Positions 50,413 through 62,126 of a DNA stretch of 64,000 nt are shown here, piece by piece. The notes below the pieces were generated by a model. It did no database searches. It saw nothing but the letters and a program-made list of their open reading frames with translations, and was not told the DNA's origin. The stretch is taken from the NCBI RefSeq assembly GCF_041886205.1, contig NZ_CP169029.1; one strand, given 5' to 3'. Position 1 is the stretch's first letter. Each line of letters opens with the position of its first letter. A program made the position numbers and the translations under genes. Source of the stretch: Escherichia coli (lineage in GTDB: Bacteria > Pseudomonadota > Gammaproteobacteria > Enterobacterales > Enterobacteriaceae).

Positions 50413-50427
50413 TATCATTCGAATGTA

Positions 50428-50466
50428 TGGTTTTATCATTTGTATTTAATATACAAATGATAAAAC
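50428..50466. repeat. Perfect 17-bp-arm inverted repeat at the left edge of the adhesin island
   Basis: ggttttatcatttgtat-ttaat-atacaaatgataaaacc, read directly; located 15 nt after the yfgJ stop in an AT-rich spacer. Confidence 0.8.
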
Positions 50467-50621
50467 CTTCTCTTATTAGTTAAATCATTAATACATGTGA
50501 GTAAAATTATTTAGATATATTTTTAGGAATATATTTAGTTTTTCTGACGTGCCTTCCTGAATGTTCTGGCATAGAATATTAGAGCTTATTCATCAAATTA
50601 TCATTGCCACAGGGAAAGTGC

Positions 50622-52796
50622 ATGCTGCGATGGAGTCGCTTTATTATGTTACTATTCATCTCTGCTGCAACTCCTGCGGCAGAGATAAATAGTAAGCAAA
50701 ACGAATCGTTACCTGATTTAGGCAGCCAGGCGGCTCAACAAGTAGAACAAACGGATAAGGGTAAATCGTTAAAAGAGCGTGGAGCCGATTACGTCATTGA
50801 TTCTGCTACGCAAGGGTTTGAAAACCTAACCCCCGAGGCGCTGGAATCTCAGGCCAGAAGCTATCTGCAAAGTCAAATCACCTCAACCGCACAATCTTAT
50901 ATTGAAGACACACTCTCTCCCTACGGTAAGGTCCGTTCGAATCTCTCTATTGGTCAGGGTGGCGATCTGGATGGTAGCTCCATCGATTATTTTGTTCCCT
51001 GGTATGATAATCAAACGACCGTTTATTTCAGTCAATTTTCTGCGCAACGAAAAGAGGATCGTACGATCGGGAATATCGGAATTGGAGTAAGACATAATTT
51101 CGATGAATGGCTTTTGGGTGGGAATATATTTTACGATTATGATTTCACCCGTGGGCATCGTCGTTTAGGTTTAGGGACAGAAGCCTGGACCAATTATTTA
51201 AAATTTTCTGGCAACTATTATCATCCGCTCTCTGACTGGAAAAACTCTGAGGATTTCGACTTTTATGAAGAGCGTCCGGCGCGCGGTTGGGATATTCGTG
51301 CTGAAGCCTGGTTACCTTCTTATCCACAACTGGGGGGCAAGATTGTCTTCGAGCAATATTACGGTGATGAAGTCGCCCTTTTTGGTACGGATAATTTAGA
51401 GAAAGATCCCTATGCGGTGACGCTAGGACTAAATTATCAACCGGTACCGTTACTGACAGTTGGAACGGATTATAAAGCGGGGACCGGAGATAACAGCGAT
51501 GTCAGCATTAATGCCACTCTTAATTATCAGTTCGGCGTTCCGCTAAAAGATCAACTCGACAGCGATAAAGTAAAAGCAGTCCACTCGTTGATGGGTAGCC
51601 GACAGGACTTTGTCGAGCGTAATAACTTTATCGTCCTGGAATATAAAGAGAAAGACCCTCTGGATGTGACGTTGTGGCTGAAAGCGGATGCGACCAACGA
51701 GCATCCAGAGTGCGTCATTAAGGACACTCCTGAAGCGGCGGTCGGTCTGGAAAAATGTAAGTGGACCATTAACGCACTGATCAATCACCACTACAAAATT
51801 GTCGCTGCGTCATGGCAGGCGAAAAACAATGCCGCCCGCACGCTGGTGATGCCGGTCATCAAAGAAAATACCATCACTGAAGGCAACAACAACCACTGGA
51901 ATCTGATACTGCCAGCCTGGCAGTACAGCTCTGACAAAGCTGAGCAGGAAAAACTCAATACCTGGCGGGTACGGCTGGCGCTGGAAGATGAAAAAGGTAA
52001 TCGGCAAAACTCCGGCCTGGTGGAAATCACTGTTCAGCAGGACCGTAAAATAGAGCTTATCGTCAATAACATTGCCGATGCGCCTGCCGAGAATAACCAC
52101 AGCCATGAAGCCAGCGCTCAGGCGGATGGCGTTGATGGTGTAGTCATGGACCTCGAGGTGACGGACAGTTTTGGCGATAACACGGACCGCAACGGTGATG
52201 CTCTGCCAGAAGATAATCTTGCACCGCAGCTCTACGACGCTCAGGACAAAAAAGTCACGCTAACCAATAAACCCTGCTCGACCGACAACCCCTGCGTGTT
52301 TATTGCCAAACAAGATAAAGAAAAGGGAACGGTAACCCTCTCCAGTACATTGCCAGGCGTTTTCCGCTGGAAAGCGAAAGCGGCTCCCTACGATGACAGT
52401 AACTATGTGGATGTCACGTTTATTGGATCTGATATCGGCGGGCTTAATGCTTTCATTTACCGGCTTGGGGTAGCGAAGCCAGTCAATTTGATCGGCAATG
52501 ATAAAGACCCCCTGCCGCTGGGCAACACGTACCGATTTGTGTTGTGGCGTGATGCCAACAAAGACGGCGTTTTTCAGCAGTCGGAAAAACTAACCGATGA
52601 AGAGATGACTCAGTACGACTACAAGTGGGAATTTACCGGCAAGAGCATCAATGGCGAAGTAGGTGCGCAGGCGAACACATCCAATGCAGACATTGTAATA
52701 CCGGCGACCAACCGTGAAGCGGCGCAATCCTATGGTGCAAAAGTGGAAGATGGCTTGCAGGGATACGGTTTACGCGTGCTGTACACCAAAAAATAA
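50622..52796 (+). CDS. sinH: Intimin/invasin-family inverse autotransporter (SinH-like)
   Basis: Signal peptide MLRWSRFIMLLFISAATPAA; intimin/invasin-like beta-domain motifs (GNIGIGVRH, YYHPLSDWK, GWDIRAEAWLPSYPQLGGK, EQYYGDEVALFG) followed by passenger domains. An alternative TTG at 50604 would give the 730-aa track ORF. Confidence 0.75.
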   Translation: MLRWSRFIMLLFISAATPAAEINSKQNESLPDLGSQAAQQVEQTDKGKSLKERGADYVIDSATQGFENLTPEALESQARSYLQSQITSTAQSYIEDTLSPYGKVRSNLSIGQGGDLDGSSIDYFVPWYDNQTTVYFSQFSAQRKEDRTIGNIGIGVRHNFDEWLLGGNIFYDYDFTRGHRRLGLGTEAWTNYLKFSGNYYHPLSDWKNSEDFDFYEERPARGWDIRAEAWLPSYPQLGGKIVFEQYYGDEVALFGTDNLEKDPYAVTLGLNYQPVPLLTVGTDYKAGTGDNSDVSINATLNYQFGVPLKDQLDSDKVKAVHSLMGSRQDFVERNNFIVLEYKEKDPLDVTLWLKADATNEHPECVIKDTPEAAVGLEKCKWTINALINHHYKIVAASWQAKNNAARTLVMPVIKENTITEGNNNHWNLILPAWQYSSDKAEQEKLNTWRVRLALEDEKGNRQNSGLVEITVQQDRKIELIVNNIADAPAENNHSHEASAQADGVDGVVMDLEVTDSFGDNTDRNGDALPEDNLAPQLYDAQDKKVTLTNKPCSTDNPCVFIAKQDKEKGTVTLSSTLPGVFRWKAKAAPYDDSNYVDVTFIGSDIGGLNAFIYRLGVAKPVNLIGNDKDPLPLGNTYRFVLWRDANKDGVFQQSEKLTDEEMTQYDYKWEFTGKSINGEVGAQANTSNADIVIPATNREAAQSYGAKVEDGLQGYGLRVLYTKK

Positions 52797-59900: not shown

Positions 59901-62000
59901 ATAACCAGTCCCGACTCACCGAAAGCAAAATACTGGGGTCATATGGCCGACACGTTTACCAGCAGTGCGGGGGTGACCTTTAAACGACCACTACTGGCAG
60001 CGGAAGCGACCTCCGGGTCCTCGGTTGGCAGTAATAATGAGTCGTGGTCATACCTTAATGTTAACGACAGAGCTACGTCGGATTGCTCACTGGAGTATCA
60101 GCCGCGTCTCAATGAGTTACAGGGGTTATATAACGATCATCCTGGCGGGGCCATACAGACGGATCTGGGGTTACCTGTAGCTGCCGGAAGTGGAAACTGG
60201 TGGGCTTATGAAATGAGTATACCTAACCCCAGCGGGTCGGTGTGGTTTTACGGCATCATTAATTTGAAAACGGGACAATCGTCGACCACGTCGAGTGGAT
60301 TCGCTTTAATGCTCTGCCTGACGCAGCCGCATACGGTACCGGCAAGCCTTACACTGTCATCAACCGCCTACGATGAAGGCAGAACCGCCAGCAATGGTGG
60401 CACACCTACGTCATCTGTGAAAAAAGGTGAGACGCTTCCCTTAGTGGTGACGATCAAAGATGCCAATGGTAACCCCGTTGGCGGCGAAGGCGTTACGCTC
60501 AAGCGCGCGCAGGCGAAAAGCCGTTCAGGTATCTCTGTCTCCTCCACTACCGTTGATGATCTTATTTTAAATGAAGTCACACCGGAATCAGCCAGCTTTT
60601 CCTTCGCCGCGGATTTGGCATCATGGAGCGGCATCACCGGCAGTGACGGCACTGTAACGTTCAATATTACACAAAAAAATACCATCGGCCTGGTAACGCC
60701 GTTTACAGCCTCATTGGGGCGAAATCCGCAGGTCACCGCCAACCAGGACCTGATGTTCACGGTGGTAACCAGCCCGGATTCGCCGAAGGCAAACTACTGG
60801 GGGCATATGCCAGCAACCTTGACGGCAGTGAATGGTGCGGTATTTGAACGCCCGAAATTGTGGAGTGAACTGCCATCGACCTCCGGCGTCGGCAAGATCA
60901 ATAACAATAATGAGGACTGGCCGTACTATTCACCGACAAAAAAATCTGATGAGAGTGTGACCCCTTGCGAAGTGGCAAGACAGCCTCTGCTTAGTGATTT
61001 AAATTCGCTGTCTGCGCGTTATCCGGATAACACCTTCGCCGCTGAAACGGGCTGGTCTGTGTATTACACCTGGTGGGCAGAGGATAAATCCGCCGCGGGT
61101 AAAGATCAGTCGGTGGATTTGAGGAATGGCACGCTGTATACGAATGCAACAGGAGCATTTCTGCCATGCCTGGTTAATGCGCGTTCAACCGTTTCCAGCG
61201 TCACGCTCACCTCAACGGCGTTTGACGCTACCACTCAGGCGGCGAAAGTGAAAAAAGGCGAAGCCATGCCCGTTACCGTAACGGTGAAAGACAGCGCCGG
61301 GAAAACGGTGGCGAATGTGGCTTTTACCCTGAAACGCGGTGATGCTGCGCCAAGAAACCCAGGTATGGCCTTGTACGGCGATGTGGATGCGATGGATGAC
61401 ATGACCGTTCAGCCGACATCGGGAGCGGCGGTGACGTGGCCTGACAGTGGCAATGCTTTGCAGGGAACCACCGGTTCTGACGGTACGGCGACGTTTATGG
61501 TTAAACAGAATAATACGCCGGGTTATAAAACGCCGTTGACGGTCACGTTGGACAATAACACCAGCATCACTGCGACAATGGACGCTATTTTCACCGTAGT
61601 GACCAGCCCGAATGTCTCAAGCGCCTATTACTGGGGGCACATGGCAGATACGACCACGGTGAATGGTAAAACATTGCATCGCCCGTTGTTGGCATCGGAG
61701 CTACCTGCGAATGCTTCTTCCCCAGCCACGCCTGACGTAAACAATGAAGCCTGGGCTATGGGGCATATGGTGGATTCAAGGAATTGGGATATCGAGGCGC
61801 AGTGTGGCAGCTTGACCAACGCGCCAAACGATGACGACTTAATGGGTCTGTATACTAACTTTAGTTCGCTGGGTTGGCCTGCATCCCCGAGTTTTCCTTA
61901 CTTATCTTCTCAGAGATGCGGCGTGTTTGAAAACAGTGGACAACAGGACTGCGCTATTGCGCCAGGCAGCACAAAAGGTTTTGTGACTTGTACCCAATAA
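53949..62000 (+). CDS. Giant secreted repeat protein (RatA/RatB-like, bacterial Ig-like domain adhesin candidate)
   Basis: 2683-aa uninterrupted ORF; GGAG RBS; signal peptide [28 protein letters not shown]; about nine tandem ~280-aa repeats, each with a Big-like module (KVKKGE…VTVKD.QGN…FTLKR) and a TSPD-x5-WGHM module. Confidence 0.8.
54500..61900 (+). repeat. Intragenic tandem repeat array (about 9 units, ~800-870 nt each) within the giant ORF
   Basis: The nucleotide motif accagcccggat…tgggggcatatg recurs near 54901, 55702, 56501, 57351, 58191, 59041, 59891, 60761 and 61601. Confidence 0.8.
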
Positions 62001-62007
62001 GATCAAT

Positions 62008-62126
62008 GTGGGGGGCCGCCTACGGCGGCCATACACAATGGACTTTGTAGGCCTGATAAGCGAAGCGCCATCAGGCATTGCGGCCCCAAACACCGAATGG
62101 CGGCTGCGCCTTGTCCGGCCTACAGG
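62008..62126. repeat. REP-type palindrome cluster at the right edge of the island
   Basis: ggccgcctacggcggcc hairpin, then gtaggcctgataagcgaagcgccatcaggc and gccttgtccggcctacag REP units between the giant ORF stop and the xseA 3' end. Confidence 0.55.

Follow-up and report, generated by a model that had tools for sequence, protein, structure and literature searches.

The 64,000-nucleotide stretch of the Escherichia coli contig NZ_CP169029.1 considered here, referred to below as the window, carries between yfgJ and xseA an intervening 11,707 bp (50413–62119) with three co-oriented genes, namely sinH, sinI and a gene for a giant RatA-like adhesin. The best overall explanation for this DNA, and a very probable one, is that it represents the E. 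coli ila locus (sinH-sinI-ratA), a three-gene version of the Salmonella CS54 island, in the form of a rare and diverged allele. The locus is already known, as it is annotated in RefSeq and has been published as the ila cluster, as IatB or SinH, and as a vaccine target. An initial annotation of the window had described an accessory adhesin island with an inverse autotransporter, a SinI-like protein of about 325 residues and a giant Ig-like repeat protein, each with its own signal peptide, and had proposed it as the E. coli counterpart of CS54. The gene content, the protein assignments and the link to CS54 are all borne out, whilst the implied direction of events, an insertion between yfgJ and xseA, is probably wrong.

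The three proteins and their known relatives

The 11.7-kb stretch is 100% identical to that of E. coli strain wlxctx60, isolated from bear faeces in Japan, in which RefSeq names the three products sinH, 'SinI family autotransporter-associated protein' and 'adhesion domain-containing protein'. The SinH of the window matches the NCBIfam equivalog model NF033423 over its full length with 1466.8 bits against a cut-off of 999, and SinI scores 342.9 bits against a cut-off of 165 with NF040711. The giant protein scores 5240 bits (cut-off 3870) with NF011844, a 'RatA-like' profile (PRK15316) of exactly 2683 positions, and falls below the cut-offs of the other Rat models, with 2058 against 3700 for RatA and 2260 against 4079 for RatB. 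Signal peptides were seen in all three translations by eye.

SinH is an intimin-like inverse autotransporter (type Ve) made up of a signal peptide, a barrel and a passenger. The barrel is covered by the Pfam domain IAT_beta (PF11924) at residues 62–335 with an E-value of 4.8e-107, and it also matches the invasin/intimin barrel structures 4e1t and 4e1s (E 3.5e-72 and 6.9e-63, respectively). The Pfam search of the passenger returned no Big match; SinH has been described as surface-exposed, with three Ig-like domains (PMC9937491). The same study, which develops the protein as an antigen for vaccination, places sinH in phylogroups B2, D, F and G. The RatA-like protein is a putative Sec-exported chain in which an N-terminal Ig-like domain of about 190 residues (residues ~29–216) is followed by nine tandem 'invasin-tip' modules, composed of a BIg21 domain and a lectin-like adhesion domain (InvE_AD). 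No barrel, two-partner secretion or autotransporter domain was returned by the domain search, in agreement with the initial view that the protein has only a Sec signal peptide and no obvious domain for its own secretion. Hidden Markov model searches for inverse-autotransporter and bacterial Ig-like (Big) domains have thus found the former in SinH and the latter, as BIg21, in the RatA-like protein. In the InvE protein of Yersinia pseudotuberculosis (PDB 5n40) the module is fused to the protein's own barrel and located at the tip, whereas the protein of the window has nine copies and no barrel. The N-terminal domain is confined to the N-terminus of Rat-like proteins in an exhaustive protein search, whilst a word-indexed protein search with the same region gave fragments only.

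SinI is a barrel-less, putative Sec-exported protein. It has a signal peptide, an N-terminal stretch of low model confidence that contains a motif shared with the Rat proteins, and two beta-sandwich domains, and a PDB sequence search gave no match. In all the loci examined sinI lies directly downstream of a SinH-type gene.

The same three genes, in the same order and at the same chromosomal site, make up the ila locus of the uropathogenic E. coli strain CFT073, whose RatA-like protein also has 2683 residues, and the locus of IatB in strain SMS-3-5. IatB is the orthologue of SinH and has a SinI-like gene downstream (PMC6714894). Two publications (PMC12928451, PMC12525524) refer to the 'ila cluster (sinH, sinI, ratA)' as probably derived from Salmonella CS54, report that sinH is co-transcribed with sinI, and describe ila deletions that attenuate strains in a mouse urinary-tract model; the literature attributes to the locus a role in adhesion, invasion and urinary-tract colonisation. 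The CS54 island of Salmonella enterica (shdA-ratB-ratA-sinI-sinH) has the same der-yfgJ flank and the same order of sinH, sinI and rat genes, and the SinH of the window passes the equivalog model common to both. Unlike CS54, the window has a single Rat gene, for a protein of 2683 residues, in place of the Salmonella RatA (1865 residues) and RatB (2435 residues). It lacks ratB and shdA, so that the full set of five genes is not present, and the two SinI proteins are about 46% identical.

The distribution of the locus was surveyed by megablast in 5426 complete E. coli genomes. It is present in 1747 of these (~32%), which agrees with its description as accessory, and 934 match over most of the length. 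Matches of 22% coverage could be mistaken for truncated islands, an explanation that was rejected, as they are full loci in which sinI and ratA are too diverged for megablast (for example in Ecol_656). The allele of the window is found at a DNA identity of at least 95% in only 10 genomes, with all other matches below 90%, and the loci of CFT073 and Nissle are 83.8% identical to it. At the protein level the identities to CFT073 are 92.7% for SinH, 90.5% for SinI and 80.8% for the RatA-like protein, and those to Ecol_656 are 87.3%, 67.6% and 66.2%, respectively. Carriers of the window allele have small genomes (4.57–4.82 Mb) and come from bear, pig, cattle, poultry, pigeon and humans. The nearby core DNA (20000–36000) is closer to that of phylogroup A, B1 and O157/E strains (98.1–98.4%) than to B2 (~97%), and reaches at least 99% identity in only 17 of the genomes; this neighbouring DNA marks the host as an unusual, separate lineage. 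Established work has made SinH a candidate for vaccines against extraintestinal E. coli and has shown the ila genes to influence urinary-tract infection, and the strong divergence between E. coli alleles (66–81% identity for the RatA-like protein and 67–90% for SinI) bears on vaccine coverage.

Borders and origin of the locus

The features of the locus are listed in Table 1. The start of sinH is the ATG chosen by the Prokaryotic Genome Annotation Pipeline (PGAP); the mechanical open reading frame begins at a TTG at 50604. The genes had been credited with strong ribosome-binding sites, which is correct for sinI (AAGGAG) and ratA (GGTGGAG), whilst the site before sinH (AGGGAAAG) is weaker.

Table 1. 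Features of the sinH-sinI-ratA locus and its flanks, in coordinates of the window
Feature	Position	Strand	Description
yfgJ	50197–50412	+	Left flank, zinc-ribbon protein; from the RefSeq annotation of the identical strain, pairwise identities and alignment to K-12
palindrome	50429–50467	+	Two perfect 17-nt arms; left border
sinH	50622–52796	+	Inverse autotransporter gene; 724 residues from the PGAP ATG
sinI	52851–53828	+	Gene for SinI-family autotransporter-associated protein; 325 residues
two-hairpin element	53836–53910	+	Conserved, intercistronic (sinI-ratA)
ratA-like gene	53949–62000	+	Giant adhesin without barrel; 2683 residues
REP/BIME-like repeats	62046–62124	.	Between the stop codons of ratA and xseA
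xseA	62120–63496	-	Right flank

The palindrome on the left, described as perfect in the initial annotation, is indeed so, since its 17-nt arms (50429–50445 and 50451–50467) are 100% complementary around a 5-nt loop. It starts 16 nt 3' of the yfgJ stop codon and is followed by a T-rich tail. The palindrome is kept in imperfect form in the alleles of CFT073 and Ecol_656 and is not conserved in Salmonella or Citrobacter. It is likely to be the terminator of yfgJ or a regulatory site within the AT-rich region upstream of sinH. The repetitive extragenic palindromic (REP) elements claimed for the right border are supported in part. Inverted arms are found at 62046–62060 and 62110–62124, and the REP end recurs once more in the window, at 26460. 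The match to the REP-derived RNA naRNA4 in Rfam is below threshold (25.7 bits against a gathering score of 59.5), and the REP label draws in part on the general REP consensus.

The empty site in K-12-type strains is an argument for reading the 11.7 kb as a recently acquired island, inserted between yfgJ and xseA with the palindrome and the REP elements as its borders. In a K-12-type strain there is no intervening DNA and the flanking genes have 4 nt in common, in keeping with the adjacency given in the initial annotation, and in K-12, C600 and B-type genomes the match is restricted to the flanks. As the trio is absent from the K-12-type genome, the observation of an additional, accessory locus stands. 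At the left end, the AT-rich composition of one stretch (GC 0.42) would likewise fit a recent arrival. Against this, the same trio adjoins yfgJ in the same order in S. enterica, S. bongori, Citrobacter, Kluyvera, Pseudocitrobacter, Superficieibacter and two other Escherichia lineages, with xseA on the far side in Citrobacter and with RatA and RatB following in S. enterica; in Leminorella the trio occupies a different chromosomal site. No tRNA was found in the 64-kb window, and neither an annotated integrase or insertion sequence gene nor a flanking direct repeat was detected, whilst the GC content of the gene-bearing part (0.47–0.56) is like that of the flanks. The attributes of a mobile or pathogenicity island (tRNA or integrase, direct repeats and deviant base composition) are thus lacking. 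Moreover, the E. coli alleles are deeply diverged and the one described here is found in a separate lineage, and the REP content of the right border varies from strain to strain. Recent insertion is therefore very unlikely. It is more likely that the locus is an old enterobacterial module, ancestral at the yfgJ/xseA site, which has been lost from K-12-like lineages, because several genera have the trio at this position and it shows no signs of mobility.

Three observations can be added on these genes and their flanks. The YfgJ of the window has 65% protein identity to that of K-12 and 83% to its counterparts in other ila-positive strains; the divergence from K-12 is located in the N-terminal half, away from the junction, and for this reason is used as evidence neither way for the history of the locus. 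The last ~150 nt of xseA (62120–62270) are unlike K-12 and give the product a different C-terminus (458 residues as against 456). In a Pseudocitrobacter metagenome contig (L010, 755–2944) the SinH-type gene is called as two open reading frames of 234 and 459 residues, and may be a pseudogene or reflect a sequencing error; the SinI and Rat-like genes downstream are intact.

A two-hairpin element between sinI and ratA

The 120-nt spacer between sinI and ratA contains two perfect hairpins, with stems at 53838–53865 and 53870–53904, an invariant UUUCCG between the stems and GUUGA after both. The hairpins are conserved in 12 loci that represent seven or more enterobacterial genera. In the alignment of these loci 98% of the cells are paired, as against ~42% in slid controls, and 12 of 25 pairs have changed on both sides, a level of covariation reached by none of 500 shuffles. 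The G-U pairs agree with the plus strand, and the fold of the element has a z-score of -5.7. A search of Rfam with 53836–53910 gave no match even at E-values up to 1.

With a covariance model of the element, each locus gives exactly one copy. When 100,044 species genomes were scanned with a pattern, 12 further full-strength copies (74–92 bits) and one weaker, partial copy came to light. Each of these 13 is flanked by SinI and Rat homologues in Enterobacteriaceae DNA; for one, the contig bears the label of a Collinsella metagenome-assembled genome. Six pattern matches in non-enterobacterial genome bins were treated as chance, as they score no more than 30 bits and have no SinH, SinI or Rat homologues. 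The element was not found in the spacer between ratA and ratB of Salmonella. From its sequence and position it is likely to be an attenuator, a terminator or an mRNA-processing signal between sinHI and ratA, and the UUU(U)CCG that follows the first stem makes an attenuating terminator or a processing site the likeliest role. The balance between sinHI and ratA expression would probably depend on the hairpins.

SinI, its neighbours and the route to the surface

SinI is related to both of its neighbours. At its C-terminus, ~115 residues align with the end of SinH (the last ~100 residues) at 34% identity and a BLASTP E-value of 1e-12, a similarity that is also found in the NCBIfam search. Its N-terminus resembles those of the Rat proteins, with an hhalign E-value of 8.6e-8 and a probability of 94% when the signal peptides are included. 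For the mature parts the values are 3.4e-5 and 72% at a score of 37.5, compared with 13.3 +/- 2.7 in column shuffles, and none of 200 shuffles reached the observed score. This relation is visible with profiles only, as BLASTP gave nothing significant when the N-terminus of RatA was compared with SinI or SinH. Directly after the signal peptide both families have a box of the form W-x6-T-G-x-I-x-G-T-x-P, which is followed about 50 residues further on by DTEGD. The box reads WQIVSEQTGTIQGTVP in the SinI of Salmonella, WQELNSVTGAVNGTAP in its RatA and WQELTEQTAAINGTPP in its RatB, whilst slightly variant forms are found in the window at residues 34–48 of SinI (52950–52994) and residues 32–47 of the RatA-like protein (54042–54089). 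It is found in SinI, RatA and RatB of several genera, occurs neither in the autotransporters nor elsewhere in the window, and is situated in low-confidence stretches of both structure models. With a Rat-like N-terminal box and a SinH-like C-terminus, SinI has the appearance of a hybrid of its two neighbours. Judged by its sequence, the N-terminal module common to SinI and the Rat proteins is a candidate for a shared recognition signal.

The initial annotation raised the idea that the giant protein might be displayed in trans with the help of one of its neighbours. This is a published hypothesis, drawn by analogy with the Salmonella ZirTSU system, in which secretion of ZirS depends on ZirT, as has been shown experimentally (PMC2270342). 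SinH, like ZirT, was proposed as a translocase for SinI and Rat-like proteins in 2016 (PMC4943183), and the proposal was repeated in 2019 (PMC6714894). The likeness holds at the gene level, where the gene for an intimin-family barrel precedes those for Ig-fold proteins that depend on Sec, lack a barrel and resemble the passenger of the barrel protein. There are also differences, in that SinI is a weak match to the ZirU family (E 5e-5, 23.5 against a cut-off of 100), the putative substrate here is ten times larger than ZirS, and dependence on the barrel protein is known for the ZirT/ZirS pair only.

All three proteins of the ila locus would cross the inner membrane via Sec, and SinH would insert in the outer membrane and display its own passenger. 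On the analogy with ZirTSU, SinH would then aid SinI and the RatA-like protein, in a two-partner-like manner, in arriving at the cell surface or remaining there, as ZirT does for ZirS and ZirU. The candidate recognition signal for this step would be the N-terminal module of SinI and the Rat proteins. Such SinH-aided display is a tentative proposal that falls somewhat short of probable. The coupling of the three proteins argues for it, as the genes travel together in one order across Enterobacterales, even to another site in Leminorella, and so does the fact that SinI has one domain in common with each neighbour.

A number of points weigh against SinH as an export partner. IatB/SinH forms biofilm without the downstream gene (PMC6714894), and structural studies cited in PMC4943183 show the pore of the inverse-autotransporter barrel to be filled by its own linker. 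For a 12-stranded barrel, a chain of ~280 kDa in which every lectin-like domain has a pair of Cys would be difficult to handle as a substrate. The similarity between mature SinI and Rat N-termini is moderate, declining to an E-value of 5e-4 and a probability of 31% under a stricter column setting, and no experimental test of SinH-dependent export of SinI or RatA was found in the literature. The biofilm and linker results, together with the complete passenger that SinH already possesses, fit a self-sufficient SinH that plays no part in the export of the other two. SinI and the RatA-like protein would then be periplasmic, for instance as Ig-fold chaperones or scaffolds, or would leave by a different route such as type II secretion or vesicles, and the clustering of the genes would reflect co-regulation only. 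This explanation is possible though less likely than not, as it leaves unaccounted for the fixed order and joint movement of the trio, the two-sided homology of SinI and the export of ZirS by the related ZirT.

SinH-aided display could be made more specific if SinI were an adaptor that joins a Rat-type head to a SinH-type tail, the short, conserved and predicted-disordered box being the signal by which SinH recognises and displays barrel-less giant adhesins, and the two-hairpin RNA setting the stoichiometry. This extension is speculative and on present evidence unlikely; if true, it would turn the loose analogy with ZirTSU into a defined secretion signal.

The signal peptide of SinI has a further peculiarity. 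Its Cys22, the sole Cys of the protein, lies inside the signal peptide within the motif [VLI]-A-G-Y-C (residues 18–22, 52902–52916), which is kept in 100 of 102 SinI homologues (41–91% identity), and one homologue has a canonical V-A-G-C. This conservation might be taken to mean that SinI is an outer-membrane lipoprotein, acylated at Cys22, that tethers or helps to assemble SinH and RatA. The canonical lipobox, [LVI]-[ASTVI]-[GAS]-C, does not accommodate Tyr at position -1 and was rejected for SinI, since this residue is present in 100 of the 102 homologues. Moreover, a good signal peptidase I site (A-x-A) is found 7 residues further on, and some Rat signal peptides appear related yet have no Cys. 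A lipoprotein is thus improbable. The two-sided homology of SinI, the Cys in its signal peptide and the covarying two-hairpin RNA may be new observations, and together with the box they offer handles on how a barrel-less 280-kDa adhesin reaches the surface.

Elsewhere in the window, a cluster of four plus-strand genes for a reductase of the dimethyl sulfoxide (DMSO)/selenate family lies between pbpC and ndk (36338–41013). It is absent in Ecol_656, where pbpC and ndk are adjacent, and of the 5426 complete E. coli genomes only 380 have it, most of them O157:H7 and O55:H7 strains with ~98% identity.

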